Part shown: in pieces, positions 4,429 through 28,082 of the stretch
How the letters are laid out: every line of letters starts with the position of its first letter
How positions within the stretch are numbered: position 1 is the first letter of the stretch
Sequence record: NC_047808.1
Length of the DNA: 39,300 nt
From: Escherichia phage vB_EcoP_F
Direction: 5' to 3' (one strand)
Translations under genes and position numbers: made by a program
Notes under the pieces: model-generated
What the model saw: only the letters and a program-made list of their open reading frames with translations
What the model was told of the DNA's origin: nothing
Database searches by the model: none

Positions 4429-4480
4429 GTGTTAGACTCAAGGTCATTACTATATGTAGTGGCCTTTATGGTTAACACTA
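4429..4480 (+). promoter_or_regulatory. candidate RNase III processing hairpin (R18.5 position) containing motif TAGACTCAAGGTCAT
   Basis: Imperfect inverted repeat GTGTTA..TAACAC enclosing the recurrent motif; intergenic, same relative position as T7 R18.5. Confidence 0.3.
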
Positions 4481-4529
4481 ACTAGTGGAGGCGACTCTAC
4501 GTGAAATCTGATAAACCGGGAGGGCAACT

Positions 4530-4979
4530 ATGCTCGAATTTTTAAAGAGAGCGGCTCCGTGGTTACTTGCAGCAGTGATGTTTGCTGGTGGCTACCACAC
4601 CGCTAACAATAAGTGGGAGGCTAAGGTCAATGCAGAATACACCTCGAATCTTAAGGCATCGGAGGATACAAGGCTTGCTGTCCAAGCTGAAGTCAACAAA
4701 GTGTCCAAACGGTTCCAGGACGAAATGTCCTCGTTGGAAGGCAGCACTGATAGGATTATTGCTGACCTTAAGTCTGACAATAAGCGGCTGCTCATCCGAG
4801 TCAAACCTACGAGTGGAACCACGCAAAGTGACGGTCGATGCTTCATTGATGGTTACGCCGAACTTGACGAACGAGATGCTAAACGTCTTATCGCCATCGG
4901 AGTGAAAGGAGACAAGTGGATTAAGGCCCTTCAAGACACTGTGAGAGCCTTACAGCAAGAGAAGGAGGTGACGCATTGA
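4530..4979 (+). CDS. Rz-like i-spanin gp18.5
   Basis: 149 aa; N-terminal TM segment ([12 protein letters not shown]) then coiled-coil-like region; GGGAGG RBS; position before large terminase. Confidence 0.75.
4630..4905 (+). CDS. Rz1-like o-spanin lipoprotein embedded in +1 frame of Rz
   Basis: Embedded ORF with signal/lipobox LTISGC (Cys codon 4789..4791), proline-rich C-terminus; ATG 4630 preceded by GGGAGG at 4615..4620; start uncertain (track uses TTG at 4582). Confidence 0.45.
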   Translation: MQNTPRILRHRRIQGLLSKLKSTKCPNGSRTKCPRWKAALIGLLLTLSLTISGCSSESNLRVEPRKVTVDASLMVTPNLTNEMLNVLSPSE

Positions 4980-6739
4980 GTAAAGACTTAGTGGCGCGTC
5001 AGGCGCTAATGACTGCCCGTATGAAGGCAGACTTCGTGTTCTTCCTGTTCGTCCTGTGGAAAGCTCTGTCACTCCCGGTCCCGACTCGCTGTCAGATTGA
5101 CATGGCGAAGAAACTATCGGCTGGCGACAACAGGCGTTTCATCCTACAGGCGTTCCGTGGTATCGGGAAGTCCTTCATTACGTGTGCATTCGTGGTCTGG
5201 AAACTATGGAACAACCCAGACTTGAAGTTCATGATTGTGTCGGCCTCAAAGGAACGAGCCGATGCGAACTCCATCTTCATCAAGCGAATCATCGACCTCA
5301 TGCCTCAGCTTAAGGAACTCAAACCTAAGCAGGGACAGCGAGATGCGGTTATCAGCTTCGACGTTGGACCAGCCAAGCCGGACCACTCACCTTCGGTTAA
5401 GTCCGTTGGTATCACTGGTCAGTTGACTGGTAGTCGTGCTGACATCCTGATTGCCGATGACGTGGAGGTTCCGAACAACTCAGCGACTCAGGCTGCACGA
5501 GACCGTCTGTCAGAGCTTGTGAAAGAGTTCGATGCTATCCTGAAGCCCGGAGGCACAATCATCTATCTGGGTACTCCTCAGAACGAGATGACCCTGTATC
5601 GTGAGCTGGAAGGTCGTGGGTACACCACTACTATCTGGCCTGCTCGTTATCCACGCGACAGGAAGGACTGGCAGTCTTACGGCGACCGTCTGGCTCCTAT
5701 GCTTCAGGCAGAACTGGAAGAGGACCCTGAGTCCTTCTACTGGCGTCCGACCGACGAGGTACGCTTCGATGATACGGACCTGAAGGAACGTGAGTTGTCA
5801 TATGGCAAGGCTGGCTTCGCTCTACAGTTCATGCTTAACCCGAACCTGAGTGATGCTGAGAAGTACCCTCTGAAGCTCCGTGACCTTATCGTAGCTGACT
5901 TGGACCCAGCGTCTAGCCCAATGGTCTACCAATGGCTTCCTAACCCTCAGAACAAGCGTGAGGACGTTCCTAACGTTGGACTCATGGGGGACTCATACCA
6001 CACGTATCAGACTGTAGGTTCTGCCTTCAGTTCGTACACCCAGAAGATTCTAGTCATTGACCCTAGTGGTCGTGGTAAGGATGAAACTGGTTATGCGGTA
6101 CTGTACCAGCTAAACGGCTACATCTTCGCTATGGAAGTTGGCGGTATGCGGGGCGGCTATGAAGACTCTACGCTGGAAGCCCTGGCTAAGATTGGTCGTA
6201 AGTGGAAGGTCAACGAATACGTAATTGAGGGTAACTTCGGTGATGGTATGTACCTTGAGCTATTCAAGCCTGTAGCTTCCCGTATTCATCCTGCTGCTGT
6301 AACTGAAGTGAAGAGTAAGGGTCAGAAGGAACTCCGCATCTGTGACGTTCTGGAGCCTATCATGGGGTCTCACCGACTTATCATCAACGCTGCTGCTATC
6401 GTCCAAGATTACCAGTCTGCCTCTGATAAGGATGGTGTTCGTAATCCTATCTACTCTCTCTTCTACCAGATGACACGTATCTCTCGTGAACGTGGAGCAT
6501 TGGCACACGATGACCGACTTGATGCGCTGGCTATCGGTGTACAGTTCTTCGTTGAGTCTATGGCGAAGGATGCCAACAAAGGCGAACGTGAAGTCACTGA
6601 GGAGTGGCTGGAAGAACAGATGGAGAACCCACGGAAAGGCTTCGAGTCCATCCACACTGAGTTCTGGGACAATGGGGTCCGGGTAACTCACGATACGGAC
6701 GACGAGCTTGGACTAGGGTCCTACGTTACGTTCCACTAG
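4976..6739 (+). CDS. terminase large subunit gp19
   Basis: 587 aa; strong similarity to recalled T7 gp19 from the first residues ([33 protein letters not shown]); apparent TTG start 4976 overlapping Rz stop, GAAGGAGG RBS upstream. Confidence 0.9.
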
Positions 6740-6781
6740 CTGAATGAATAACTATAGGCGAAAACTGAATTAATAAGCAGT

Positions 6782-6800
6782 TAGTAACCTATGGTTACTA
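6782..6800 (+). promoter_or_regulatory. tight hairpin TAGTAACC-TAT-GGTTACTA (8-bp perfect stem, 3-nt loop)
   Basis: Perfect inverted repeat between terminase stop and phiOR-like promoter; no adjacent U-tract. Confidence 0.25.
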
Positions 6801-6833
6801 CCAGTCTAACCTACTGTTTTACAAGGAGTTTGG

Positions 6834-6856
6834 ACTTAACTATCACTATAGGGAAG
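6834..6856 (+). promoter_or_regulatory. phage RNA polymerase promoter (phiOR position), ACTTAACTATCACTATAGGGAAG
   Basis: Consensus match; located after gene 19 as T7 phiOR. Confidence 0.75.
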
Positions 6857-7035
6857 ACCCCCGGTTACTTATAGTATTACTGTAGTGAATATACATATGC
6901 AGACTTTATGCAAGACCTTAGGAGGCAGACTCCGAGTTCTTACCTAAGGCTTGCACCGATGGAAGGAGGGTGATATTAATCATAATCCCTCCAATACAGA
7001 TAGTAAAGACCATAGATACAGGAGGTATGTAGCAT

Positions 7036-7194
7036 ATGGCAAAGACCAAAGCTGTACTTAAAGCTCTGGCTACCAATCGAGCTACATACAGGTTTCTTGC
7101 TGCTGTTCTACTTGCTGCTGGCGTTACTGCTGGAAGTAAGTGGGTCGGGTGGGTCGAGACTCTCGTATGTTCTCTGGTGTCTCAGTGCAATTAA
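7036..7194 (+). CDS. gp19.5-like small membrane protein
   Basis: 52 aa (MAKTKAVLKALATNRATYRFLAAVLLAAGV..); GGAGG RBS at 7021..7025; resembles recalled T7 gp19.5 (RVTYRFL motif); last gene before genome end. Confidence 0.5.
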   Translation: MAKTKAVLKALATNRATYRFLAAVLLAAGVTAGSKWVGWVETLVCSLVSQCN

Positions 7195-7309
7195 CGCAAT
7201 CATGGTAACGATTCATGAAAGGAGGTAGGTAGGTGTGAACGAAGATGACTACGTGTCGTTCTCAGAAGAGGACTACCAGACAGAGTGGGAATACGCACAT
7301 GGGAGGAAG

Positions 7310-7356
7310 AGCTAAGGTCAGTACGTGGATAAAGACTCACTCTACTGACCTTAGCT
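7310..7356 (+). promoter_or_regulatory. perfect 14-bp stem hairpin AGCTAAGGTCAGTA ... TACTGACCTTAGCT with 19-nt loop
   Basis: Exact inverted repeat 7310..7323 / 7343..7356 in the non-coding right-end region. Confidence 0.35.
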
Positions 7357-7447
7357 ACTGTAGTCAAGGACTTTAGGTAACACCTTAATAGAAGCTCACT
7401 TAGGGTCATCCTACTTATTGGTCCATCCTAGTGTCGCCTGACCTACG

Positions 7448-7490
7448 GTCCTTGACCTACAGTGGCTGTGGCCTACAGTAGTGACGATGA
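7448..7490 (+). repeat. short imperfect direct repeats (GACCTACGG / GACCTACAGTGG / GGCCTACAGTAG), right-end array
   Basis: Three CCTACAG-like units at about 14-bp spacing immediately before predicted terminus; analogous to T7 short-repeat array adjacent to terminal repeat. Confidence 0.3.
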
Positions 7491-7517
7491 GTTTTGGACC
7501 AAAAGTTTGAGACCACA

Positions 7518-7715
7518 TCTCACAGTTCAAGAACCTCAAGTCTCCCCATAGGCCCTCTTTAAGTCCAGACCAAAGGCCCTACCCAGTCTATCATAAGGCT
7601 GGACCGATGGTCGACGATAGGTCTAGGCTATGGCTGGAGGTCAGGACGATAGGTAGGGACTATTGGTCTGTCTCTGAGTCTCTATCTGTATAGTGATATA
7701 GTATAACATTACGTC
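7518..7715 (+). other. predicted physical genome terminus and terminal-repeat region (single collapsed copy); left end predicted at 7518
   Basis: TCTCACAGTTCAAGAACC..CCCCATAGG at 7518 resembles recalled T7/T3 left-terminal sequence (TCTCACAG..); non-coding; flanked by short-repeat arrays; right boundary not determinable. Confidence 0.3.
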
Positions 7716-7815
7716 CTACACCTACAGTCCTACACCTACAGTCCTACAACCTACAGTCCTACAACCTACAGTCACAACCATAAGACACCAACACCTACAG
7801 TCATAGACCTACAGT
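7716..7815 (+). repeat. array of imperfect short tandem repeats (unit approx CCTACA[A]CCTACAGT, 14-15 bp period)
   Basis: cctacacctacagtcctacacctacagtcctacaacctacagtcctacaacctacagtc.. seen directly; position equals T7 left-end short-repeat array. Confidence 0.5.
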
Positions 7816-7926
7816 TAATAGACACACAGCTATAGACTTAAGGTCAAAGACATGTTAGTCAAAGACTATATCCTCTTACACCATGAGGCCGACGATAGCT
7901 CAATCAATATTATTTCGAATTACCTA

Positions 7927-7956
7927 TTGACTATAGGTCTAGACTATGGCTTAATA
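7927..7956 (+). promoter_or_regulatory. candidate host sigma70 early promoter (A1-like): TTGACT-17 bp-CTTAAT
   Basis: -35 TTGACT at 7927..7932; spacer contains CTAGACTATGG resembling T7 A1 spacer; weak -10. Confidence 0.3.
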
Positions 7957-8067
7957 GCTTCCGTCAACACGACACGGCAACAACCGGATAGTGAAGACGC
8001 CTGGTCATCCCGGTTAAGTAGACAGCCTGATAAGTCATACGAACAACAGGCAGATGACAGAAAGTAG

Positions 8068-8204: not shown

Positions 8205-8262
8205 CGACAGTGATTAACTACAGGGTCTTTGAGTCTACATCTGAAGGCCCTGACTGATAGTC
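8205..8262 (+). promoter_or_regulatory. candidate RNase III site/hairpin (AGTGATTAACTACAGG ... CCTGACTGATAGTCACTAAC), copy 1
   Basis: Imperfect inverted repeat; a near-identical copy precedes the ocr gene (8532..8590). Confidence 0.35.
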
Positions 8263-8284
8263 ACTAACTTAACGGATGGACACT

Positions 8285-8530
8285 ATGAAACACTTAAGCA
8301 CAATCACTAATCGCAATGAAGTATTCGTGAACACTAAAGGTTATGCGTGGATTCAGCTTAAAGAGATGACAGGAGCGCGTCACCGTGTGGTAGTGCGCAA
8401 GGTCTCAAGCAAGCCATTCAGCAACTACAGCGTAGATACTGTGCGTATAGACAACGAGACCTACCTGATAGACTCGCAGATAACCGTGAGTCTTACAGCG
8501 GGCGTCTCAGCTCCTTATTTCGCTAACTGA
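8285..8530 (+). CDS. hypothetical early protein (first gene downstream of host promoters)
   Basis: Track ORF 8276..8530; start moved to ATG 8285 with GGATGG RBS; no recognisable homolog. Confidence 0.45.
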   Translation: MKHLSTITNRNEVFVNTKGYAWIQLKEMTGARHRVVVRKVSSKPFSNYSVDTVRIDNETYLIDSQITVSLTAGVSAPYFAN

Positions 8531-8531
8531 G

Positions 8532-8590
8532 AGTGATTAACTACAGGTCGTTAGACTCATAGCGGCCTGACTGATAGTCACTAACATACA
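8532..8590 (+). promoter_or_regulatory. candidate RNase III site/hairpin, copy 2 (R0.3-like), upstream of ocr
   Basis: Repeat of the 8205..8262 element (AGTGATTAACTACAGG..GCCTGACTGATAGTCACTAAC). Confidence 0.35.
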
Positions 8591-8617: not shown

Positions 8618-8962
8618 ATGGAACGTAACGCTAACGCATACTATGAGCTGCTGGCTGCAACCGTTGAGCTGTTCAATGAGCGTATTCAGTACGACGAAAT
8701 AACTGAAGGCGATGATTATTATGATGCGCTGCATGAGGTCGTAGACGGTCAGGTTCCGCACTATTACCACGAGATTTTTACGGTGATGGCTGCTGATGGT
8801 ATAGACCACGAGTTCGAAGACTCTGGGCTGATGCCTGAGACCAAGGACGTAATGCGTATACTACAAGCTCGCATCTATGAGGCTCTGTATAACGATGTGT
8901 ATGATAGCTCGGATGTAGTCTGGTTCGAGGCTGAAGAGAGTGACGAGGAGGACTGCGAGTGA
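8618..8962 (+). CDS. ocr: Ocr-like DNA-mimic anti-restriction protein gp0.3
   Basis: 114 aa, acidic; strong match to recalled T7 gp0.3 (VPHYY..IF.VMA..GID.EFEDSGLMP.TKDV.RILQARIYE). Confidence 0.85.
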   Translation: MERNANAYYELLAATVELFNERIQYDEITEGDDYYDALHEVVDGQVPHYYHEIFTVMAADGIDHEFEDSGLMPETKDVMRILQARIYEALYNDVYDSSDVVWFEAEESDEEDCE

Positions 8963-9111
8963 TGGTAACTTATGGTCTCTGCCAGCACCACGTCACCAAC
9001 GCCCGGCTTATGGTCAAGACCGGGCAGTTAAACCACGATGCGACTATGCGCCACCTGAAAGCGGTCTACGAGGGCCGCAAGCGTATACACGACAGCTTAC
9101 ACACTGAGTGA
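8962..9111 (+). CDS. hypothetical early protein, 49 aa
   Basis: ATGA overlap with ocr stop, GAGGAGGA upstream; own translation MVTYGLCQHHVTNARLMVKTGQLNHDATMRHLKAVYEGRKRIHDSLHTE. Confidence 0.4.
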   Translation: MVTYGLCQHHVTNARLMVKTGQLNHDATMRHLKAVYEGRKRIHDSLHTE

Positions 9112-9177
9112 TAGACGAGAGGTCATCGACTGATAGGTGGCCTCAAAGATTACCACTTACATTGATAGGAGTTAACT

Positions 9178-9267
9178 ATGAACATCGGTTACTGGGTATG
9201 CCTGTCTCCAGTTATCTGGATGATAGGCTATGGGTTATACGACTGTATTAAACGGAAATCACTATGA
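9178..9267 (+). CDS. hypothetical small hydrophobic peptide, 29 aa
   Basis: GGAG RBS at 9166..9169; MNIGYWVCLSPVIWMIGYGLYDCIKRKSL; stop overlaps next start (ATGA). Confidence 0.35.
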   Translation: MNIGYWVCLSPVIWMIGYGLYDCIKRKSL

Positions 9268-9461
9268 GTAGCGCAATATTGATAGCCATAGGCTATGGAC
9301 TTATCGCCTACGTGCTGGTGAGAGACATCGACAAAGCGCGTAAAGTCTACAAATTCAACTATGTACGTCTGGGCCGCTGGACTGTACGTCAACCTAACGG
9401 ACGATTCATGCGCAACTTAGCGAACGTCTGGGATATAGCAACTATTGGGAGCAAACTGTAA
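9264..9461 (+). CDS. hypothetical early membrane protein, 65 aa
   Basis: Track ORF; N-terminal TM helix (AILIAIGYGLIAYVLV); translationally coupled. Confidence 0.45.
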   Translation: MSSAILIAIGYGLIAYVLVRDIDKARKVYKFNYVRLGRWTVRQPNGRFMRNLANVWDIATIGSKL

Positions 9462-9721
9462 TGAAAACCGTATACATTAACAAACCATCTATCCGTAGCC
9501 GTGTAGAGCAAATACAGCGTGACGTGTTCTTACATCGCCGCATGGAGGCTGAGGGCCATAAGTCCGAACTGATGTGTCTGGCGTATGGTGGACGACCGAT
9601 CACTGAAGATGGTAAACTTTTAGTCTCAGGCTGGAAGGCGATAGACCAACGGTCAACCATCAAGCACACGACTAATGGTGACTTCAGCCATCTCCACGCT
9701 AACCCACTGATATGCAAGTGA
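9461..9721 (+). CDS. hypothetical early protein, 86 aa
   Basis: Track ORF; GGGAG RBS; ATGA overlap with upstream ORF. Confidence 0.5.
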   Translation: MKTVYINKPSIRSRVEQIQRDVFLHRRMEAEGHKSELMCLAYGGRPITEDGKLLVSGWKAIDQRSTIKHTTNGDFSHLHANPLICK

Positions 9722-9726
9722 TTATG

Positions 9727-9749
9727 ACTTAACTATCACTATAGGACTC
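9727..9749 (+). promoter_or_regulatory. phage RNA polymerase promoter immediately upstream of the RNA polymerase gene, ACTTAACTATCACTATAGGACTC
   Basis: Full consensus match; +1 G at 9744, 75 nt upstream of gene 1 ATG. Confidence 0.7.
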
Positions 9750-9815
9750 AAGGTCTAAGACTACAAGTGAAAGACCAAAGAGACTTTAAGTGAAAGACTA
9801 ATAACAAGGACTTTA
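9745..9815 (+). promoter_or_regulatory. candidate RNase III processing region (R1 position) with repeated AAGTGAAAGAC / GACTTTAAGT units
   Basis: GACTCAAGGTC motif plus internal direct repeats in leader of gene 1. Confidence 0.3.
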
Positions 9816-9818
9816 AGT

Positions 9819-12500
9819 ATGAGCGTCATCTCTATTGACAAACACGACTTCTCTGATGTGTCGAACGCCATTGAGCCGTTTAACCTGCTGGCCGACCACT
9901 ACGGGCAAGACCTTGCAGTCAAACAGCTTCAGCTTGAGCATGAGGCATACACTGAAGGCGAGCGACGTTTCATCAAAAACCTTGAGCGACAGACTGAGCG
10001 CGGGGAACTGGCAGACAATCAGGTCGCCAAGCCTTTGATGCAGACTCTGGTCCCTAAGATTGCGCAAGCCGTCAGGGAGTGGCATGAAGGTCCAGACGGG
10101 AAGCTGTCAACCTCTCGTCCTAGCGTAGCGTTCACCATGTTAAGCACTGAAGAGAAGGCCGTCAAGGACCGCTCTCTGCGTATCTCTTGCGAGTCTGCTG
10201 CGGTCATCATACTGAAGGTCATACTCTCCAAGCTGGTCAAGCCTGAAGGGATACCGATTACACCGATGGCCTCCGCGATAGGCCGCACACTTGAGGACGA
10301 AATCCGCTTCGGTCGCATCCGTGACAAAGAGAAAGAGCACTTCAAGAAGGCGATAGCTGATAACCTGAATAAGCGGGCCGGGGCGTCCTACAAGAAAGCC
10401 TACATGCAAGCGGTCGAGGCGTCCATGCTGGAGCAAGGCCAACTGGAAGATGCGTGGGGGACTTGGAGTCCTACAGAGGCTGTCCACGTTGGCATCAAGA
10501 TGCTTGAGATTGTCATCCAGTCAACACAACTGGTCGAGCTTAAGCGGTACGGTGCTGGCAATGCAGCGGCTGACGTAGAGATGGTCCACCTGTCGGACTT
10601 CTGGGTCAAGAAGATGGCACAACGAGGATTCAGCCTTGCGGGTATCGCTCCAGTCTACCAGCCTTGCGTCGTTCCACCTAAGCCGTGGACTGGTGTCGTA
10701 GGTGGTGGGTACTGGGCCAAAGGTCGCAGACCGTTACCATTGATTCGCTTAGGGTCTAAGTCTGCGGTAGCACGTTATGAAGACGTGTACATGCCTGAAG
10801 TCTATGACGCTGTGAACATCATCCAAAATACACCTTGGAAAGTGAACAAGGAGGTATTGGACGTGGTGAACATGGTCGAGAAGCTGAACAACACGCCTAT
10901 TGATGACATCCCTCAGATGGAACCGCTGAAGCCTGAGGACTATGCTGGTGAGACCGAGGAGGAACTCAAGGCATGGAAGAAGGCTGCTGCTGGTATCTAT
11001 CGCCGCGAGAAGGCCAGACAGTCACGCAGATTATCACTGAGCTTTATCGTTAACCAAGCAAACAAGTTCTCTCAGTTCAAGGCCATCTGGTTCCCGTACA
11101 ACATGGATTGGCGAGGTCGTGTCTACGCTGTCCCGATGTTCAACCCTCAGGGTAACGACATGCAGAAGGGTCTCCTGACTCTGGCAGTCGGCAAGCCTAT
11201 TGGTGCTGACGGTTTCAAATGGCTGAAGGTCCACGGTGCAAACTGTGCGGGTGTCGATAAAGTCACCTTCGAGGAGCGCATCAAGTGGGTGGAAGACAAC
11301 CACGAAAACATCATGGCTGCTGCTAAGGCACCGATGGATAGTATTGAGTGGTGGGGCAAGTTAGACTCTCCGTTCTGTTTCCTCGCGTTCTGCTTCGAGT
11401 ATGCTGGCGTAATGCACCACGGCCTGTCTTACTCCTGCTCGCTGCCGATAGCGTTCGATGGGTCCTGCTCTGGTATTCAGCACTTCAGTGCGATGCTTCG
11501 TGACCACATCGGTGGACATGCAGTAAACCTGACGCCATCCGGTAAGGTACAAGACATCTACCGCATTGTGTCTGACCGCATTGAGGAGGAGCTTAAAGTC
11601 CTGCTGATTAACGGTACTGACAACGAGATGGTCACTCACGAGGATAAGAAAACTGGTGAGATTACCGAACGTATCAAGCTGGGGACACGAGAGCTGGCCC
11701 GTCAGTGGCTGACATACGGTATGTCACGCAAGGTCACTAAGCGTTCAGTCATGACTCTGGCATACGGGTCGAAAGAGTACGGCTTCGCAGACCAAGTTTA
11801 CGAGGACATCGTGATGCCAGCGATTGACTCAGGGTCTGGCGCTATGTTCACCGAGCCGAGCCAAGCGTCTCGCTTCATGGCTAAGATGATTTGGGAAGCT
11901 GTGAGCGTGACCGTAGTTGCTGCGGTTGACGCGATGAAGTGGCTTCAGGGTGCTGCCAAGCTGCTGGCTGCTGAAGTGAAGGACAAGAAGACTGGAGAAA
12001 TCCTGAAGCCTTGCCTTCCGGTACACTGGGTAACACCTGATGGTTTCCCGGTCTGGCAGGAATACCGCAAGAAGGATACCACTCGTCTGAATCTGATGTT
12101 CTTAGGGTCATTCAACCTTCAACCTACGGTCAACAAAGGCATGAAGAAAGAGCTGGACAAGCACAAGCAGGAGTCAGGCATTAGCCCGAACTTCGTCCAC
12201 TCACAAGATGGTAGCCACCTACGCAAGACTGTAGTCCACACGCATCGCAAGTATGGCGTGATGTCATTCGCAGTGATTCATGATAGCTTCGGGACCATCC
12301 CGGCTGACGCTGAATATCTGTTCCGTGGTGTCCGTGAGACGATGGTCGAGACCTACCGCGACAACGATGTGCTGCTTGACTTCTACGAGCAGTTTGAATA
12401 CCAGCTTCACGAGAGCCAGCGCGATAAGTTGCCTGAGCTTCCGAAGAAAGGTAAACTGAATATCGAAGACATCTTGTCTTCAGACTTTGCATTCGCTTAA
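9819..12500 (+). CDS. single-subunit DNA-directed RNA polymerase gp1
   Basis: 893 aa vs T7 RNAP 883 aa; conserved motifs e.g. HDSFGT, YGVMSFAVIHDSFGTIP, C-terminal FAFA. Confidence 0.95.
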   Translation: MSVISIDKHDFSDVSNAIEPFNLLADHYGQDLAVKQLQLEHEAYTEGERRFIKNLERQTERGELADNQVAKPLMQTLVPKIAQAVREWHEGPDGKLSTSRPSVAFTMLSTEEKAVKDRSLRISCESAAVIILKVILSKLVKPEGIPITPMASAIGRTLEDEIRFGRIRDKEKEHFKKAIADNLNKRAGASYKKAYMQAVEASMLEQGQLEDAWGTWSPTEAVHVGIKMLEIVIQSTQLVELKRYGAGNAAADVEMVHLSDFWVKKMAQRGFSLAGIAPVYQPCVVPPKPWTGVVGGGYWAKGRRPLPLIRLGSKSAVARYEDVYMPEVYDAVNIIQNTPWKVNKEVLDVVNMVEKLNNTPIDDIPQMEPLKPEDYAGETEEELKAWKKAAAGIYRREKARQSRRLSLSFIVNQANKFSQFKAIWFPYNMDWRGRVYAVPMFNPQGNDMQKGLLTLAVGKPIGADGFKWLKVHGANCAGVDKVTFEERIKWVEDNHENIMAAAKAPMDSIEWWGKLDSPFCFLAFCFEYAGVMHHGLSYSCSLPIAFDGSCSGIQHFSAMLRDHIGGHAVNLTPSGKVQDIYRIVSDRIEEELKVLLINGTDNEMVTHEDKKTGEITERIKLGTRELARQWLTYGMSRKVTKRSVMTLAYGSKEYGFADQVYEDIVMPAIDSGSGAMFTEPSQASRFMAKMIWEAVSVTVVAAVDAMKWLQGAAKLLAAEVKDKKTGEILKPCLPVHWVTPDGFPVWQEYRKKDTTRLNLMFLGSFNLQPTVNKGMKKELDKHKQESGISPNFVHSQDGSHLRKTVVHTHRKYGVMSFAVIHDSFGTIPADAEYLFRGVRETMVETYRDNDVLLDFYEQFEYQLHESQRDKLPELPKKGKLNIEDILSSDFAFA

Positions 12501-12518
12501 TAACATAGGAGAGACAAC

Positions 12519-12793: not shown

Positions 12794-12816
12794 CCTAAAC
12801 TATCACTATAGGATTA
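12794..12816 (+). promoter_or_regulatory. phage RNA polymerase promoter (phi1.1 position), CCTAAACTATCACTATAGGATTA
   Basis: Consensus match; by analogy with T7 this region may also be the primary replication origin. Confidence 0.75.
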
Positions 12817-12870
12817 GACTCAAGGTCATGACTCAGAGTCGTGGCCTTCATGATTAACCCTATAACCTAA
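12815..12870 (+). promoter_or_regulatory. candidate RNase III site (R1.1 position) with motif TAGACTCAAGGTCAT
   Basis: Recurrent motif at 12815..12829. Confidence 0.3.
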
Positions 12871-12888: not shown

Positions 12889-13068
12889 ATGTATCAGAAC
12901 ACTATCAACTTCGAGCGCATCCGTGAACGTCAGCAGACTGAAGATTACATTCCGAAGGGCCGCAAGCTGAACAAGACCAAGCGTGGCGGTGGTGTCAAGG
13001 GTGCTTTCCGTAACGCTGAGGGCAAAGACTCTATGGTAAATCAAGAGAAATACTTCGTAGGAGCATAA
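12889..13068 (+). CDS. gp1.1-like small basic protein, 59 aa
   Basis: Own translation MYQNTINFERIRERQQTEDYIPKGRKLNKTKRGGGVKGAFRNAEGKDSMVNQEKYFVGA; KGRKLNKTKR matches recalled T7 gp1.1; GGAG RBS. Confidence 0.6.
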   Translation: MYQNTINFERIRERQQTEDYIPKGRKLNKTKRGGGVKGAFRNAEGKDSMVNQEKYFVGA

Positions 13069-13072: not shown

Positions 13073-13336
13073 ATGGGCCGACTTTATAGTGGCAACATTA
13101 ACGCTTTCAGAGCAGCGTGCAACCGACTATATCAGTTAGACTTCGCTGTCATATCTCAGGAGTCTCAAGACCTTGCGTCACGCCAAGAGTGCATGAGACT
13201 CAGGGTCGAGGACCGGGCTGGTAACATATTCGCTCTTGAGTCCTTCGCACACTACGATGAAGACGTACTGTACAATACTGCAACCGACTTCCTTAATGGT
13301 CTCGCTGACCAACTCGACACATGGAGCAAATCCTAA
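13073..13336 (+). CDS. gp1.2-like protein (T7 gp1.2 is the host dGTPase inhibitor)
   Basis: 87 aa; MGRLYSGN..LRVEDRAGN..HYDEDVLYN matches recalled T7 gp1.2. Confidence 0.75.
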   Translation: MGRLYSGNINAFRAACNRLYQLDFAVISQESQDLASRQECMRLRVEDRAGNIFALESFAHYDEDVLYNTATDFLNGLADQLDTWSKS

Positions 13337-14388
13337 TGACAACGATTATCAAAACTAACCCACATCGCGCTGTATACTACTCTGAGTCTGGCGTTAAGAA
13401 AGCACTGGATGCCACTGGGTCTCTCGAAGCTGAAGTGAAGTACGATGGCGTCCGGTTGAATCTTCCGGTCTTCCCTACTGGTGAGACTCAATGGTTGAGC
13501 CGTGAGTCTAAACCTCTCCCAGCCCTTAGCTGGTTGAACACTTCCGGTCAGGACATAGGAGCTACCAAAGCGAGCGACTGGCGGTGGTTCCTGAAGCAAG
13601 CTGGCTATGAAGGGACTGGCCTGATGATTGATGGCGAGGTCATGGTGAAAGGGGTTGACTTCAACACGTCTTCGGGCCTCATCCGCACGAAGTATGTCAA
13701 GTCTAAAAACTACGACTTCCACGATGGCGATTGGGACCTCAAGTCCAAGACTACTCAGTTCCGGCTGGACCGAGACCATATCAAGGTGGTCGTCTATGGT
13801 ATCATAGACCTTAACGTCATCCTTGACCAGAAAGCCGAAGGTCCTATCCATAGCGTCACACGCCTGAAGGCCGAAGCTATCGTCCCTCTCCTCCAGAAAT
13901 ACTTCCCGGAAATCGACTGGGTTCTGTCTGAGTCACACACGGTCTATGACCTTGAGTCGCTCAACTCCCTGTACGAACAGAAGCGTCTGGAAGGACATGA
14001 GGGTCTGGTAGTCAAGGACCCGCTGGGTAAATACAAGCGTGGCAAGAAGTCAGGCATGTGGAAGATGAAGCCTGAGGAGACCATCGACGGGACAGTATGT
14101 GGCCTCGTGTGGGGGACTCCGGGTAAGGCTAACGAAGGTAAGGTGATTGGCTTTGAGGTGCTGCTTGAGGATGGCATGGTGGTTAATGCTTGTGGTCTGA
14201 CTGAAGAACAGAAGGATGAGTTTACGGAAGCCTGTAACACTGATACATATATTCTCGGTGGAATCAATCCATACGAAGGCTGGCAGTGTGAAGTCCTTTT
14301 CATGGAGCGGTTCCCTGATGGCTCACTCCGTCATCCCAGCTTCAAGTGTTGGCGTGGAACGGAAGACAATCCAACCGTTAAGAGCTAA
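13336..14388 (+). CDS. ATP-dependent DNA ligase gp1.3
   Basis: Adenylation motif KYDGVR; start set to ATG 13336 (TAATG overlap, GGAG RBS), giving MTTIIKTNP.. like T7 MMNIKTNP.. Confidence 0.9.
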   Translation: MTTIIKTNPHRAVYYSESGVKKALDATGSLEAEVKYDGVRLNLPVFPTGETQWLSRESKPLPALSWLNTSGQDIGATKASDWRWFLKQAGYEGTGLMIDGEVMVKGVDFNTSSGLIRTKYVKSKNYDFHDGDWDLKSKTTQFRLDRDHIKVVVYGIIDLNVILDQKAEGPIHSVTRLKAEAIVPLLQKYFPEIDWVLSESHTVYDLESLNSLYEQKRLEGHEGLVVKDPLGKYKRGKKSGMWKMKPEETIDGTVCGLVWGTPGKANEGKVIGFEVLLEDGMVVNACGLTEEQKDEFTEACNTDTYILGGINPYEGWQCEVLFMERFPDGSLRHPSFKCWRGTEDNPTVKS

Positions 14389-17558: not shown

Positions 17559-17576
17559 ACTATCACCTTAGGGATG
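17554..17576 (+). promoter_or_regulatory. divergent phage-promoter-like sequence CCTAAACTATCACCTTAGGGATG (two core mismatches)
   Basis: Upstream half identical to consensus; -4/-3 differ. Confidence 0.35.
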
Positions 17577-17626
17577 GGACCATTAGTCCTGTCCCTTTGT
17601 TCGCATTATTGATTAAGGAGTGACCA

Positions 17627-17813: not shown

Positions 17814-19517
<1,704 letters not shown>

Positions 19518-19550
19518 TTACGAGAAGTATAAATGGAGGGTTCCATTCTA

Positions 19551-19856
19551 ATGTTACGAAAACTTAAAGCTCGCTACCATCGGTTCATGTACAAATGGTG
19601 GAGTGACGAAGCAACCTGCCTGTCCAACATTCTGGGAGACCAAAGGTTCGAAGGCGTGGGGAGGGTAAAGCTCGCTACCATCGGTTCATGTACAAATGGT
19701 GGAGTGACGAAGCAACCTGCCTGTCCAACATTCTGGGAGACCAAAGGTTCGACTCCGAGGCGTGGAAGAGAGCTAACCGGAAGTTTATGTATCACTTCTT
19801 GCGTACAGACTTCTAGGTCTAGACTCAAGGTCATTCATAGCGAGTGGCCTGTATGA
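19551..19856 (+). CDS. hypothetical protein ORF altered by an internal 101-bp tandem duplication (gene 4.x region)
   Basis: GGAGGG RBS before ATG 19551; reading passes through repeat copy 1 in one frame and copy 2 in another. Confidence 0.3.
   Translation: MLRKLKARYHRFMYKWWSDEATCLSNILGDQRFEGVGRVKLATIGSCTNGGVTKQPACPTFWETKGSTPRRGRELTGSLCITSCVQTSRSRLKVIHSEWPV
19565..19766 (+). repeat. tandem direct duplication, period 101 bp, 87 bp identical (19565..19651 = 19666..19752)
   Basis: Seen directly: TAAAGCTCGCTACCATCGGTTCATGTACAAATGGTGGAGTGACGAAGCAACCTGCCTGTCCAACATTCTGGGAGACCAAAGGTTCGA twice. Confidence 0.85.
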
Positions 19857-19870
19857 TTAGACTAAAGCGG
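19814..19870 (+). promoter_or_regulatory. candidate RNase III site (R4.7 position) with motif TAGACTCAAGGTCAT
   Basis: Motif at 19820..19834 in intergenic leader of gene 5. Confidence 0.3.
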
Positions 19871-19880: not shown

Positions 19881-22052
19881 ATGTTTGACTTTAAGAGTAT
19901 CTGGGGTTCTGACATCGAGACCAACGGTCTCCTTGATACAGTCTCCCAGTTTCACTGTGGGGTCCTGATTAACGCCGAGTCGAATGAGACCCTTAAGTAT
20001 GGGGTAGCTCCGATGGTCGGTATCGTCGGCGGCTTCAAAGAGTATGTTCATAAAGTGGAAGAGATTGCCGCATCACCTGATGGTATGCTGGTATTCCATA
20101 ACGGTATCAACTATGACGTCCCGGCTATAGACAAGCTGAAGCGTTTGTACTTTGGGAAACGCTTTAACTTCCCGAAACATAAGATGATTGATACCTTGGT
20201 GCTGGGACGCTTGATGTATCCAAACATTAAGTTCTCAGACATGGGCGCAGTGAAAGCTGGTCGTCTGCCACCTAAGATGATGGGACGCCAGTCTCTTGAG
20301 GCTTGGGGCTATCGTCTCGGTGAGATGAAAGGTGAGTACAAACACGATTACGTTGCCAAGTGCAAGGCTGAAGGTATCGAATATAAGGCTGGGGACGAAT
20401 GGTTGTTCCCGTCTCAGGAGATGCTGGACTATAACGTTCAAGACGTTGTGGTCACACTGGCGTTGTTCAAGAAGTTCCTGACTGACAAGTATTACTTCCA
20501 GTCTGAACAGTTCGCTTTCGACCAGATTTATGCGTTGCGTCTGGAACATGATGCTGCGTGGACCTGTGCGAAGATGGAACGTAACGGCTATCCGATGAAC
20601 ACCGAGATGGTCGAAGGTTTATATCGTGAACTCACCGTCAAACGTGCAGAGCTGCTGGACAAGCTGCGTTCGACTTTCGGCAGCTGGTACGCACCAAAGG
20701 GAGGCAAGGAGTTCTTCAAGCACCCACGGACAGGCAAGGACCTTCCGAAGTATCCGCGCGTCGTGTATCCTAAGGTCGGGTCAGTATTCAAGAAGCCGAA
20801 GAACAAAGCTCAACGCTTAGGTCTGGAGCCTTGCGAGTTCGACTCACGAGACACGATGGAGGGAGCGCCGTTCACACCTATCACTTACGTTGAGTTTAAT
20901 CCGGGAAGCGGGGACCACTTAGCGAAAGTTCTGATGGAGCGTGGCTGGGAGCCTGTGGACTTCACTGACACCGGGAAACCTGTAGTCGATGACGAGACGT
21001 TGGAACACGTTAAGTTACCAGACGCAGAGGCTCAGGCTTGCGTAGAGCTGGTCCGTGAATATCTGGTGGTCCAGAAGCGCATCGGTCAGGCTGCTGAAGG
21101 TAAGAACGCATGGTTGAAACTTGTAGGTCCAGACGGGCGTATGCACGGTTCAATCAACCCATGCGGGGCAGTAACCGGACGTGCGACTCACAGTTCACCA
21201 AACATGGCTCAGGTCCCGGCTAACGGTGCTCCATACGGTGAGACTTGCCGTGGTGCTTTCGGTGCAGCGTGGAACAAGAAGGACGGTACGCCAGACCCTT
21301 GGATTCAAGTAGGCGTGGATGCTTCAGGTCTTGAGCTTCGTTGTCTGGGGAACCGAGCGGCTCCGTTTGATGGTGGCGCCTATGCGAAGACTGTGGTCGA
21401 AGGTGACATCCACTGGGCCAACGCAGTCAACGCTGGGTTAGCACCTAACGTCCCACGCAATAAGTCCAGCCACGACCATGATGCTTTCCGTAACAACGCT
21501 AAGACGTTCATCTATGCGTTCCTATATGGTGCAGGGGCCGCGAAGATTGGACTGATAGTTGGCGGTGGTAAGAAGGAAGGTGCTGCCCTGATGAAGAAAT
21601 TCATTGAGGGTACACCAGCTATTAAAGACCTCAGGGAAGCTGTGAGTAATACGTTAATCTCCGAATCCAAATGGGTAGATGGAGAGAACATCGTGAAGTG
21701 GAAACGTCGCTGGCTGAAAGGTCTGGATGGTCGCCGTATCCACATCCGGTCTCCACACTCAGCACTAAACGCATTACTTCAAGGCGATGGTGCGGTTGTC
21801 TGTAAGCACTGGATTGTAGAGACTGAACGTATGCTTGAAGAGGCAGGGTATGTTCACGGCTGGGAGGGGGACTTCGCGTACATGGCCTGGGTTCACGACG
21901 AATTGCAGATTGCGTGCCGTACTCAGGAGATTGCCGAAGAAGTCGTCAAGATTGCTCAACTTGCTATGCGTAAGGTGGGTGAGTTCTATAACTTTAAATG
22001 TGTCCTTGATACCGAAGGTAAGATTGGACCAACGTGGAAGGAGTGTCACTAA
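19881..22052 (+). CDS. DNA polymerase gp5 (family A, with 3'-5' exonuclease)
   Basis: 723 aa; position and size as T7 gp5; GGAGG RBS. Confidence 0.95.
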   Translation: MFDFKSIWGSDIETNGLLDTVSQFHCGVLINAESNETLKYGVAPMVGIVGGFKEYVHKVEEIAASPDGMLVFHNGINYDVPAIDKLKRLYFGKRFNFPKHKMIDTLVLGRLMYPNIKFSDMGAVKAGRLPPKMMGRQSLEAWGYRLGEMKGEYKHDYVAKCKAEGIEYKAGDEWLFPSQEMLDYNVQDVVVTLALFKKFLTDKYYFQSEQFAFDQIYALRLEHDAAWTCAKMERNGYPMNTEMVEGLYRELTVKRAELLDKLRSTFGSWYAPKGGKEFFKHPRTGKDLPKYPRVVYPKVGSVFKKPKNKAQRLGLEPCEFDSRDTMEGAPFTPITYVEFNPGSGDHLAKVLMERGWEPVDFTDTGKPVVDDETLEHVKLPDAEAQACVELVREYLVVQKRIGQAAEGKNAWLKLVGPDGRMHGSINPCGAVTGRATHSSPNMAQVPANGAPYGETCRGAFGAAWNKKDGTPDPWIQVGVDASGLELRCLGNRAAPFDGGAYAKTVVEGDIHWANAVNAGLAPNVPRNKSSHDHDAFRNNAKTFIYAFLYGAGAAKIGLIVGGGKKEGAALMKKFIEGTPAIKDLREAVSNTLISESKWVDGENIVKWKRRWLKGLDGRRIHIRSPHSALNALLQGDGAVVCKHWIVETERMLEEAGYVHGWEGDFAYMAWVHDELQIACRTQEIAEEVVKIAQLAMRKVGEFYNFKCVLDTEGKIGPTWKECH

Positions 22053-24494: not shown

Positions 24495-24508
24495 CTGTAG
24501 GAGGGACT

Positions 24509-24733: not shown

Positions 24734-24737
24734 GACA

Positions 24738-25142: not shown

Positions 25143-25383
25143 ATCAATCAGTAAGGCATTCAAGAAAGTGGTGAAAAGTACGCTAGGGACCGTTGGTCTT
25201 GGCTCTGATGACGCACCTAAGGTTGTTGAGGCTCAGACCCCAGCAGCACCAGTGGAAGTACCGAACGACAAAGTGGAGGATGTGGATACTGAAACAACCG
25301 CATCTGACGAGAAGAAAGTGAAGCGTTCCGGTAAGCGTAGCCTTCAGGTCTCTCGTACCTCTGGTGGCGGTATTTCTATTTAA
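25135..25383 (+). CDS. gp7.3-like tail/adsorption protein
   Basis: 82 aa; C-terminus SLQVSRTSGGGISI matches recalled T7 gp7.3. Confidence 0.65.
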   Translation: MGKSISKAFKKVVKSTLGTVGLGSDDAPKVVEAQTPAAPVEVPNDKVEDVDTETTASDEKKVKRSGKRSLQVSRTSGGGISI

Positions 25384-25394
25384 GGAGGTGACGA

Positions 25395-26963
25395 ATGGCT
25401 GAACGTGAAGGGTTCGCTGCTGAAGGAGCCAAAGCGGTCTATGACCGACTGAAGAACGGTAGACAGCCATATGAGACACGCGCTCAGAACTGTGCTGCTG
25501 TCACTATCCCGTCACTGTTTCCTAAGGAGTCCGACAACTCGTCTACTGAGTACACAACTCCGTGGCAAGCTGTAGGTGCTCGCTGTTTGAACAACTTGGC
25601 TGCAAAGCTGATGCTGGCATTATTCCCTCAGTCACCGTGGATGCGACTTACAGTCTCCGAATATGAGGCCAAGACCTTGAGTCAGGACTCAGAGGCTGCT
25701 GCTCGTGTTGACGAAGGGCTTGCTATGGTCGAGCGTGTGTTGATGGCCTACATGGAGACTAACAGTTTCCGTGTGCCATTGTTCGAAGCTCTGAAGCAGC
25801 TTATCGTCTCCGGTAACTGTCTGCTTTACATTCCAGAGCCTGAACAGGGTACTTACAGTCCTATGCGAATGTACCGCTTAGTGTCCTACGTTGTTCAACG
25901 TGATGCTTTCGGTAATATCTTGCAGATTGTGACTCTCGACAAGGTAGCGTTTAGTGCTCTACCGGAAGACGTTAAGTCACAACTCAACGCAGACGACTAT
26001 GAGCCTGACACAGAGCTGGAAGTATATACGCACATCTACCGTCAAGACGACGAGTATCTACGTTATGAGGAAGTGGAAGGCATTGAGGTGGCAGGGACCG
26101 AGGGTTCCTACCCACTGACTGCATGTCCATACATCCCGGTACGAATGGTTCGACTGGATGGTGAAGACTATGGTCGTTCTTACTGCGAGGAGTATCTGGG
26201 AGACCTGAACTCGCTGGAGACGATTACAGAAGCTATCACCAAAATGGCTAAGGTAGCCTCCAAGGTGGTGGGCCTCGTTAACCCGAACGGTATCACGCAA
26301 CCTCGTCGTCTGAACAAGGCGGCTACAGGTGAGTTCGTTGCCGGTCGCGTTGAGGACATCAACTTCCTGCAACTGACTAAGGGTCAGGACTTTACGATTG
26401 CCAAGTCGGTGGCTGATGCTATCGAGCAACGTTTAGGCTGGGCCTTCCTTCTTAATAGTGCTGTTCAGCGTAATGCCGAGCGAGTCACTGCTGAAGAGAT
26501 TCGTTATGTTGCTGGCGAACTGGAGGCGACCTTAGGTGGCGTGTACTCAGTACAATCCCAAGAGCTTCAGTTACCTATCGTCCGTGTGCTGATGAACCAA
26601 CTTCAGTCTGCTGGCATGATTCCTGACCTTCCGAAAGAAGCGGTAGAGCCTACTGTCTCCACTGGTCTGGAAGCGTTAGGTCGTGGTCAGGACTTGGAGA
26701 AGCTAACTCAGGCGGTTAACATGATGACTGGTCTTCAGCCGCTATCTCAGGACCCGGACATCAACTTGCCGACCCTTAAGCTACGACTCCTGAACGCTCT
26801 GGGCATCGACACCGCTGGCCTACTCCTGACGCAAGACGAGAAGATTCAGCGCATGGCTGAGCAGTCGTCTCAACAGGCAGTTGTCCAAGGTGCTAGTGCT
26901 GCTGGTGCTAACATGGGTGCTGCTGTAGGTCAGGGAGCTGGTGAGGACATGGCTCAAGCCTAA
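25395..26963 (+). CDS. head-tail connector (portal) protein gp8
   Basis: 522 aa; position and size as T7 gp8; AGGAGG RBS. Confidence 0.9.
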   Translation: MAEREGFAAEGAKAVYDRLKNGRQPYETRAQNCAAVTIPSLFPKESDNSSTEYTTPWQAVGARCLNNLAAKLMLALFPQSPWMRLTVSEYEAKTLSQDSEAAARVDEGLAMVERVLMAYMETNSFRVPLFEALKQLIVSGNCLLYIPEPEQGTYSPMRMYRLVSYVVQRDAFGNILQIVTLDKVAFSALPEDVKSQLNADDYEPDTELEVYTHIYRQDDEYLRYEEVEGIEVAGTEGSYPLTACPYIPVRMVRLDGEDYGRSYCEEYLGDLNSLETITEAITKMAKVASKVVGLVNPNGITQPRRLNKAATGEFVAGRVEDINFLQLTKGQDFTIAKSVADAIEQRLGWAFLLNSAVQRNAERVTAEEIRYVAGELEATLGGVYSVQSQELQLPIVRVLMNQLQSAGMIPDLPKEAVEPTVSTGLEALGRGQDLEKLTQAVNMMTGLQPLSQDPDINLPTLKLRLLNALGIDTAGLLLTQDEKIQRMAEQSSQQAVVQGASAAGANMGAAVGQGAGEDMAQA

Positions 26964-26981
26964 ACTATCACTATAGGAACA
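26959..26981 (+). promoter_or_regulatory. phage RNA polymerase promoter (phi9 position), CCTAAACTATCACTATAGGAACA
   Basis: Consensus match; gene 8 stop TAA inside promoter. Confidence 0.75.
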
Positions 26982-27071
26982 ACACAACTTGAGTGAGTGA
27001 ACGCATAGCCAGCCGTAACGGGAGGGCAGGTTGTTGTGTTTCCTATTAACGACTTAAAGGAGAATGACTTA

Positions 27072-27956
27072 ATGTCTCAATCAGTTTATGCCGAGTTCGG
27101 CGTTAGCTCTAATGCAATCACTGGTTCCGTTGAGGACCTGAACGAACACCAGAAGTCTATGCTTGAACAGGACGTAGCTGTTCGTGATGGCGATGACGCT
27201 ATTACCTTCAAGCAACTGGAAGCCGAAAACGAAGAGGCGACCGAAGAAGACGAGAACGTCGAAGAGACTGGGGGTGATGAAGACAACGAGTCCGATGACG
27301 AAGAGTCGGAGGACGATGGTGAGCAGCCTGAGTTCATCGAACTGGGTGATGCACCGAAAGATCTGACCGAAAGTGTCACCGCTCTGGATGAAAACGAAGC
27401 TGCATTTGACGACATGGTGTCTTCTGCTGTAGAAGCTGGCAAGGTCACTGCTGATGAAATTACCGCTATCAAGGCTGAATACGCCAAGGACGGTAAGCTG
27501 TCTGACGCATCCTACGCTAAGTTGCAGGAAGCAGGTTACACCAAGCGCTTCGTAGATTCGTTTGTCCGTGGTCAGGAAGCTCTGGCTGAACAGTATGCCG
27601 CTGGTGTGGTTCGCTACGCTGGTGGTGCTGAACAGTTTAATCGCATCCTGTCACACCTTGAGGCCAACGACCCGTCAACTCGTGAAGCACTGGAAGCTGC
27701 TATCGTTCGTAAGGACATTGCGACTACCAAAGCTCTGCTGAATCTGGCTGGCAAGACTCTGGGTAAAGCTGTGGGTGTTAAACCTCAGCGTACCATCACC
27801 ACTCAGGCTAAACCTGTGGTCGCACCTAAGGCTCCTCAGACCGAAGCATTCAGCTCCAAGGCTGACATGATTAAGGCTATGAGTGACCCGCGATACCTGC
27901 GTGACGCTAAGTACACGATGGAAGTTCGCGCTAAGGTAGCCGCCTCAAGCCTGTAG
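27072..27956 (+). CDS. capsid assembly (scaffolding) protein gp9
   Basis: Start set to ATG 27072 (AAAGGAG RBS); acidic; SYAKLQEAGYTKRFVDSFVRGQEAL and KAMSDPRY match recalled T7 gp9. Confidence 0.85.
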   Translation: MSQSVYAEFGVSSNAITGSVEDLNEHQKSMLEQDVAVRDGDDAITFKQLEAENEEATEEDENVEETGGDEDNESDDEESEDDGEQPEFIELGDAPKDLTESVTALDENEAAFDDMVSSAVEAGKVTADEITAIKAEYAKDGKLSDASYAKLQEAGYTKRFVDSFVRGQEALAEQYAAGVVRYAGGAEQFNRILSHLEANDPSTREALEAAIVRKDIATTKALLNLAGKTLGKAVGVKPQRTITTQAKPVVAPKAPQTEAFSSKADMIKAMSDPRYLRDAKYTMEVRAKVAASSL

Positions 27957-27957
27957 G

Positions 27958-27980
27958 ACTAAACTATCACTATAGGGAGA
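27958..27980 (+). promoter_or_regulatory. phage RNA polymerase promoter (phi10 position), ACTAAACTATCACTATAGGGAGA
   Basis: Best consensus copy; GGGAGA initiating region as in T7 phi10. Confidence 0.85.
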
Positions 27981-28082
27981 CCAAGAGATAGACTCAAGGT
28001 TTCCCTATTACTTCAGTCCATACGGATTGGGCATACAGTAAGTAATACACTTTATCTTTCAATTGAATAGGAGAATTATCAT

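Follow-up and report, generated by a model that had tools for sequence, protein, structure and literature searches.

RNase III-type hairpins of the T7 group in the genome of a K1F-like Escherichia phage

A recurrent motif and six hairpins

The sequence record of Escherichia phage vB_EcoP_F (NC_047808.1), the 39,300 nucleotides of which we analyzed in full and refer to here as the window, contains a recurrent short word, TAGACTYAAGGTCA, whose copies an earlier sequence-only reading had proposed as candidate RNase III sites at six positions. We conclude that this motif is very probably the conserved 5′ half of the RNase III processing signal of the T7 group, and that the sites are six plus-strand hairpins, three of which carry the exact motif, whereas the other three proposed motif copies are not such sites. 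The earlier finding is real and correct in its core idea, but it misassigned three of its six sites and overlooked three true ones.

The copies at 4433, 12815 and 19820 are the 5′ arms of strong hairpins on the plus strand, with a 3′ arm, GTGGCCTTnATGnTT, that begins 12–14 nt further on. All three hairpins have the same shape: a 7-bp lower stem, an asymmetric internal loop with 4 nt on one side and 5 nt on the other, and an upper stem of 9–12 bp. Within this fold, the UAG of the motif forms the top of the lower stem, ACUC the 5′ side of the internal loop, and AAGGUCA the base of the upper stem. The three hairpins are located as follows:

4426–4482, plus strand: R18.5-type hairpin between gene 18 (end 4428) and gene 18.5 (start 4530); motif at 4433–4446
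4459–4473, plus strand: 3′ arm of the R18.5-type hairpin, GTGGCCTTTATGGTT; predicted single cut after 4469
12808–12864, plus strand: R1.1-type hairpin between gene 1 and the open reading frame (ORF) at 12889; motif at 12815–12828; predicted cut after 12851
19813–19867, plus strand: R4.7-type hairpin, 22 nt upstream of gene 5 (start 19881); motif at 19820–19833; predicted cut after 19854

The R18.5-type hairpin folds with a predicted energy of -23.4 kcal/mol (z -5.9; opposite strand -12.5 kcal/mol) and scores 64.2 bits with the covariance model described below. For the R1.1-type hairpin the corresponding values are -21.2 kcal/mol (z -3.9; opposite strand -18.1 kcal/mol) and 58.1 bits, and for the R4.7-type hairpin -19.4 kcal/mol (z -3.6; opposite strand -8.9 kcal/mol) and 54.4 bits. 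The opposite strands fold less well because the structure uses conserved G·U pairs. Immediately before the R1.1-type hairpin lies phi1.1, the first phage promoter after gene 1 (core 12799–12812, +1 at 12811).

For comparison, we read the T7 sequence at the positions that we take to be R1.1, R4.7, R18.5 and R0.5. The T7 records NC_001604 and V01146 list promoters and terminators but not RNase III sites. At the R1.1 position T7 reads ACTCAAGGTCATTCGCAAGAGTGGCCTTTATGATT, with arms ACTCAAGGTCAT...GTGGCCTTTATGATT that are promoter-proximal as in the window; at the R4.7 position it reads CCTCAAGGTCGCCAAAGTGGTGGCCTTCATGAAT, with arms CCTCAAGGTCG...GTGGCCTTCATGAAT; at the R18.5 position it reads ACTCAAGGCCACTACAGATAGTGGTCTTTATGGAT, and the downstream CTACGTGAAATCTGA is common to T7 and the window; and at the R0.5 position it reads TAGACTCAAGGTCGCTCCTAGCGAGTGGCCTTTATGATT, which carries TAGACTCAAGGTC exactly. 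T7 R0.3, R1 and R1.3 follow this design with variations. The T7 R1.1-type signals and the window hairpins thus share the same two arms (ACUCAAGGUC ... GUGGCCUUnAUGAUU), the same lower stem, 4/5 internal loop and upper stem, and the same strand, and the intercistronic positions are as in T7 for R18.5, R1.1, R4.7, R0.5 and R0.3. Unlike in T7, gene 4.7 is absent from the window phage, and the R4.7-type site therefore directly precedes gene 5. R1.1 itself is a hairpin of ~60 nt between T7 genes 1.0 and 1.1 with an asymmetric 4/5-nt internal loop, and RNase III cuts it at one primary site both in vivo and in vitro (PMC6121014).

The sequence-only reading had equated five of its copies with T7 RNase III sites. 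Its assignments of 4433 to R18.5, 12815 to R1.1 and 19820 to R4.7 stand, given the sequence of both arms, the gene neighborhood and the covarying fold: in fold, two-arm homology, synteny and compensatory pairs, these three copies are members of the T7-type R1.1 class of hairpins.

Three further hairpins of the same family

Aligning the window and T7 hairpins yielded three more members of the family, none with an exact copy of the motif:

8207–8268, plus strand: extra early-region hairpin upstream of the ORF at 8285–8530; arms ACTACAGGTCG/CGGCCTGACTGATAGT; predicted cut after 8255
8530–8585, plus strand: R0.3-type hairpin, 33 nt upstream of gene 0.3; arms ACTACAGGTCG/CGGCCTGACTGATAGT; predicted cut after 8572
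9105–9160, plus strand: R0.5-type hairpin in the early region, after the ORF at 8962–9111; arms TAGACGAGAGGTCA/GGTGGCCTCAAAGATT; predicted cut after 9147

The hairpin before gene 0.3 is conserved in relatives and folds at -23.3 kcal/mol (z -4.8; opposite strand -10.7 kcal/mol; 58.7 bits). The one at 9105–9160 (-19.6 kcal/mol, z -4.0; 54.8 bits) is R0.5-like in position as well as sequence, and its flanks, GAGTGATAGAC...GATTACCACTTAC, resemble the T7 R0.5 flanks, GAGTGATAGAC...GATTATCACTTTAC. The hairpin at 8207–8268 scores 48.6 bits (E 1.9e-9), though as a training member of the model, and it has homologues in relatives; its arms, like those of 8530–8585, resemble T7 R1. This extra early site is one difference from T7. 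In addition, two T7 hairpins are missing from the window phage: R1, in front of gene 1, and R1.3, in front of the ligase gene.

Conservation in related phages

The 13-member alignment of window and T7 hairpins has a 16-pair consensus with compensatory changes at 10 pairs. A covariance model built from this alignment and run over the whole window with no filters finds the six sites, all with E < 2e-9, but no further hit below E = 1; in the same scan, 7833, 9745 and 27989 give no hit even at E ≤ 10. A whole-window Rfam scan at gathering thresholds found no family, and the T7 RNase III sites have no Rfam entry.

As relatives we used 80 loci anchored on the RNA polymerase gene, with polymerases from 99% down to 58% identical in protein sequence. 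The covariance model gave 327 hits in these loci, on the plus strand throughout among the matches listed, and a sequence-only nhmmer scan gave 267, all on the plus strand. Only 12 of the 267 overlap plus-strand ORFs of at least 100 aa (255 lie outside them), though these ORFs cover 70% of the sequence. The hits group by synteny: one class follows gene 18, one precedes gene 0.3, one occupies the early region, one follows gene 1, one precedes the ligase gene, and one lies after gene 4 / before gene 5. The before-ligase class is absent in Kayfunavirus, the genus to which the window belongs; R4.7-type orthologues lie 17–22 nt before gene 5 in Kayfunavirus loci, and an R1.1-type hairpin is present after gene 1 in related loci. 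In the reverse direction, an nhmmer profile built only from relatives recovers the three motif-bearing hairpins of the window with E-values of 3e-13 to 2e-10.

Across 113 distinct hairpin sequences, 96.8% of cells are paired, as against 26–48% when the 3′ partners are slid, and 252 cells are double changes. The AGGUC/GGCC core, with a U·G pair, is nearly invariant; at one position, U·G is found in 108 of the 113 sequences. Because this alignment was fitted to the model, the R18.5 orthologues (15 distinct) were also aligned by MAFFT/RNAalifold alone: without the model they give the same fold, with compensatory changes at 6 of 16 pairs.

Predicted processing

Cleavage and the exact cut positions are what we infer from homology to T7 R1.1: host RNase III would bind each hairpin and cleave a single bond on the internal loop’s 3′ side. 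The predicted positions listed above were placed by alignment to T7 R1.1, where the cut falls between GCCUUUAU and GAUU. Cutting would split the polycistronic early and late transcripts into smaller mRNAs, and each upstream product would retain the hairpin as a protective 3′ end. In T7, RNase III cuts the early precursor at five sites and processes middle and late RNAs as well (PMC4858673).

Several points weigh against reading the six hairpins as RNase III sites. All six are training members of the covariance model, so that their scores are circular and support must come from the relatives. The hairpin at 8207–8268 is weak as a single-sequence fold (-17.2 kcal/mol, z -1.0). The predicted cuts depend on T7 cut coordinates reportedly mapped by Dunn & Studier (1983), which the T7 records do not list. 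The literature searched holds no experimental cleavage data for this phage or its genus. Lastly, no kinase homologous to the T7 gene 0.7 product was found in the window (region 8618–9818), although one is present in six other Kayfunavirus loci (L012, L013, L017, L019, L021 and L041). As the 0.7 kinase raises RNase III activity during T7 infection (PMC4858673), processing efficiency could differ from that in T7.

The genome and its left end

The window is the circularly permuted genome of a K1F-like phage (Autographiviridae, Studiervirinae, Kayfunavirus), with every gene on the plus strand. Escherichia phage vB_EcoP_FFK3 (ON548433.1) is colinear with it in the same coordinates at 98.8% identity; the 486 differing positions are mainly third codon positions. 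The genes that serve as landmarks here are:

646–3840, plus strand: gene 17
4165–4428, plus strand: gene 18
4530–4979, plus strand: gene 18.5
4976–6739, plus strand: gene 19
8618–8962, plus strand: gene 0.3 (ocr)
9819–12500, plus strand: gene 1 (RNA polymerase)
13336–14388, plus strand: ligase gene
17817–19517, plus strand: gene 4
19881–22052, plus strand: gene 5 (DNA polymerase)
28083–29126, plus strand: gene 10 (capsid)

When the linear genome of K1F (NC_007456) is aligned to the window, its left end falls at 7518 and its right end at 7682, so that 7518–7682 is the terminal repeat, collapsed in the window. Arrays of (A/G)CCTACAGT repeats lie on both sides of it (7430–7820). In the non-coding left-end region the FFK3 record has a 71-aa “alpha,alpha-trehalase” coding sequence at 7852–8067, which is probably spurious, since K1F has no annotation there. 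A1-like early promoters read by eye at ~7927 and ~8068 were unconfirmed by a promoter scan and are not used here.

Between genes 4 and 5, just upstream of the R4.7-type hairpin, there is a perfect 101-nt tandem duplication (1.9 copies, 19565–19752), the unit of which is single-copy in K1F. An unannotated 107-aa ORF (19533–19856) spans the duplication and enters the hairpin.

Occurrence of the motif

The 14-nt motif has four exact matches in the window, all on the plus strand: those in the three hairpins and one, with the T variant, at 7833–7846. None was found in 100 dinucleotide-preserving shuffles (expected 0). The partial copy GACTCAAGGTC at 9745–9755 has 3 mismatches to the 14-mer, and TAGACTCAAGGT at 27989–28000 has 2. 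Over the whole window, the 10-nt core GACTYAAGGT occurs 9 times versus 0.23 expected; its six plus-strand copies are all non-coding and its three minus-strand copies all lie within genes. The coding-strand complement, ACCTTRAGTC, is matched 16 times in the window’s genes with at most one mismatch, versus 4.3 ± 2.0 in synonymous-codon shuffles, and 13 of the 16 matches are in one reading frame (examples are at 4765, 13949 and 25674); by excess, ACCTTGAGTC ranks 10th of 30,577 10-mers.

Five of the six coordinates in the sequence-only reading are accurate, and the sixth, 7839..7855, is shifted by 6 nt from the true copy at 7833. Its description of all copies as lying in intergenic leaders fits five of them; the 7833 copy is non-coding but sits near the physical left end beside a short-repeat array, not in a mapped mRNA leader. 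Folding of each region gave the conserved hairpin at 4433, 12815 and 19820, a hairpin of another shape at 27989, and no significant fold at 7833 or 9745. Its statement that several copies lie within imperfect inverted repeats is thus borne out by the first three and, in a different sense, by 27989, which belongs to a 5′-terminal hairpin, but not by 7833 (z -1.4) or 9745 (z -0.8).

The copy at 7833

7833–7846, plus strand: orphan motif copy, TAGACTTAAGGTCA, where the CCTACAGT short-repeat array ends, left end; not of this hairpin family

The left end of the genome is 316 nt away from this copy (the K1F equivalent is at position 333), and gene 0.3 starts 785 nt beyond it. The copy closes an array of ACCTACAGT repeats just beyond the terminal repeat. 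The word is a near-palindrome (GAC...GTC), and the region has no significant fold (-12.2 kcal/mol). The motif is kept only in the closest relatives (the group with RNA polymerases at least 98% identical); in the 93% group the region differs. The relatives show single changes (TTACGGTC, TTAAAGTC) and a variable 3′ neighbor, with no compensating partner. It had been assigned to R0.3; because there is no fold, no match to the family model (E > 10) and no compensation of the changes in relatives, it is not that site, and the R0.3-type hairpin is the one at 8530–8585.

Two other accounts of this copy were considered and rejected. As a decayed hairpin it would pair with a downstream GGCCGACGATAGCTC, but that word belongs to another local repeat family and pairing amounts to only ~4 bp. 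As a sigma-70 -35 box (compare TTGACTTAAAGTCT, a word of the T7 A1 -35 region) it has no acceptable -10 box, and the promoter scan is empty there.

The copy at 9745 and the gene 1 leader

9732–9745, plus strand: phage promoter before gene 1, +1 at 9744; exact 14-nt core ACTATCACTATAGG, one of 8 in the window
within 9732–9756, plus strand: transcript start GGACTCAAGGTCT with the partial motif; no R1-type hairpin

Given this promoter core, the motif fragment at 9745 falls within the first 12 nt of a transcript. In every Kayfunavirus locus gene 1 is preceded by a phage promoter, with a transcript beginning GGACUCAAGGUC, whereas an R1 hairpin is found here only in T7/T3-like loci; the equation of the 9745 copy with R1 is therefore not upheld. 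The leader has no significant or conserved hairpin (z -0.8 and -0.6; RNAalifold alignment), and a longer minimum-energy hairpin that includes the promoter was discarded as no better than shuffles and not conserved in the alignment.

A phage promoter before gene 1 implies that the polymerase can transcribe its own gene. In the relatives, this promoter covaries with the polymerase type while the motif word stays: in L017 and L041, two Kayfunavirus-related loci with polymerases 88% identical, a T3-like promoter core, AACCCTCACTATAGG, stands at both the gene 1 and phi10 positions, yet the downstream ACTCAAGGTCT before gene 1 is unchanged. Promoter specificity appears to have switched within the Kayfunavirus-related group. 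The Kayfunavirus gene 1 promoter and its ~75-nt leader align with the T7 phi1.1B–gene 1.1 leader, with an identical ribosome-binding site (RBS) region, AGGACTTTAAGTATG, over a short alignment; unlike the T7 module, which serves gene 1.1, the Kayfunavirus module drives the RNA polymerase gene itself.

The copy at 27989 and other promoter-linked hairpins

27975–28005, plus strand: 5′-terminal hairpin of the phi10 transcript; outer stem GGGAGACC/GGTTTCCC, inner GAG/CUC stem

The phi10 transcript starts at 27975 and begins with this hairpin (outer stem GGGAGACC/GGUUUCCC; -17.4 kcal/mol, z -4.95), of which the partial motif at 27989–28000 makes up the loop and both 3′ arms. With its different shape and its lack of a covariance-model hit, this copy is not an R1.1-class site. 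The sequence-only reading had found no T7 counterpart for it, but T7 phi10 RNA starts GGGAGACCACAACGGTTTCCC, the T7 phi3.8 RNA start is almost identical, and both begin with a like hairpin; the element therefore has a T7 counterpart, though on T7 phi10 transcripts it is not a listed RNase III site. The hairpins of T7 phi10 (the leader of pET vectors) and phi3.8 have the same outer stem, GGGAGACC/GGTTTCCC, from the promoter +1. The loop is 5 nt in T7 phi10 and 8–28 nt in Kayfunavirus, where, unlike in T7, an inner GAG/CUC stem is usually present and provides the GACUCAAGG word.

The 5′-terminal hairpin is kept in 22 of 23 distinct phi10 leaders, mostly from Kayfunavirus with a few more distant ones. 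These leaders differ in loop length but share a conserved outer stem, and GACTCAA is usually kept as the 3′ arm of the inner stem; the full 12-mer TAGACTCAAGGT, however, is found in only 2 of the 23.

Other promoter-linked elements were seen in the window. T7 has a weak RNase III site immediately downstream of the hairpin of phi3.8. In the window, a phi3.8-type transcript at 17571–17610 opens with a 5′ hairpin of 10 bp, and the words that come next, CUUUGUUCGCAUU, are those found after T7 phi3.8; it is a candidate equivalent of the T7 promoter-proximal R3.8 site. The gene 10 leader has a second element (28006–28047), TTCAGTCCATACGGATTGGGC, which is essentially invariant across Kayfunavirus leaders and has nothing equivalent in T7; its core folds as a small hairpin, CAGUCC-AUAC-GGAUUG. 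Around the phi13 promoter, a 12-bp inverted repeat, AGGGCCTATAG/CTATAGGCCCT, spans 32585–32634, and in read-through RNA the promoter would sit in a hairpin loop (-21.5 kcal/mol, z -2.8).

Alternative explanations

That all six of the originally proposed copies mark RNase III sites, with the motif itself as the recognition element, strikes us as quite improbable. The over-representation of GACTYAAGGT and the non-coding location of all its plus-strand copies speak for this idea, and T7 has the promoter-proximal RNase III sites R3.8, R6.5 and R13, which differ in shape; given the near-identity of the T7 phi3.8 and phi10 hairpins, a weak cut at the phi10 hairpin is conceivable. RNase III, however, requires double-stranded RNA, and neither 7833 nor 9745 has a significant or conserved fold or a covariance-model hit, while the changes at 7833 in relatives are uncompensated. 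In the phi10 hairpin, the variable loop contains the motif’s TA, and the full 12-mer is seldom kept. Nor do the positions match those of T7 R0.3 and R1. We would grant a small chance to a different role for the orphan 5′ half-sites, in which ACUCAAGGUC of the transcript from the promoter at 9732 pairs with the gene 1 RBS, GGACUUUAAGU, and tunes translation of the polymerase. For 11 Kayfunavirus gene 1 leaders RNAalifold proposes just this 9-pair interaction, the motif word after the promoter is kept in all three promoter-specificity groups, and the complement ACCUURAGUC is enriched in coding mRNA. Against this, all nine pairs are invariant and so show no covariation, the consensus structure, which closes a ~60-nt loop, reaches only -4.1 kcal/mol, the RBS pairing is weakened with no compensation in the one natural variant (L010), and the gene 1 leader folds no better than shuffles. 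More broadly, because GACUYAAGGU is kept at the 5′ end of the gene 1 transcript and in the phi10 leader and its complement is enriched in coding mRNA, it might have a second role beyond the hairpin 5′ arm, either in long-range or trans pairing that would make extra RNase III targets or in tuning polymerase translation; we put the chance of this as slim.

The remaining alternatives concern the hairpins themselves. They could act mainly as DNA (replication-origin palindromes, cruciforms, or targets or decoys of host defense), with the RNA fold incidental: the T7 R1.1 region lies within the primary replication origin, and palindromes of T7 RNase III sites, whichever way they are oriented, set off the Lamassu DdmABC system at the DNA level (PMC11707656). 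Symmetry would be expected of a DNA palindrome, however, whereas conserved G·U pairs make the plus-strand RNA fold 3–12 kcal/mol better than its complement; moreover, the hits in relatives are on the transcribed strand only (all 267 from nhmmer, and those of the covariance model among the matches listed), and the sites are intercistronic at six separate genome positions, not grouped at an origin. We consider this explanation exceedingly unlikely. Equally improbable is the idea that the hairpins serve to terminate or attenuate transcription, or to bind a phage protein, and are not nuclease sites. They are indeed stable intercistronic stem-loops, and one (12808–12864) directly follows a promoter, but no U-tract follows any of them, and a terminator scan calls none at their positions, yet does recover Tphi at 29259–29296. 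In internal-loop geometry and sequence, furthermore, they match T7 R1.1, which biochemical work has defined as an RNase III substrate (PMC6121014, PMC4858673). The reading of the six hairpins as RNase III processing signals of the T7 group is therefore the one that we prefer.

Significance

The public records of this K1F-like phage carry no RNA features, and this analysis provides a map of six predicted RNase III sites along with a corrected picture of promoters and leaders, of use in engineering phages that target the K1 capsule and in reading their transcriptomes. The finding is textbook T7 biology in a sister genus: the elements belong to an ordinary class and were previously unannotated in this genome, and the lineage-specific differences (the lack of R1 and R1.3 hairpins and of the 0.7 kinase, and the phage promoter before gene 1) are modest. 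Because T7-type hairpins are DNA-level triggers of Lamassu DdmABC defense in another host (PMC11707656), the number and position of these hairpins may bear on host range.

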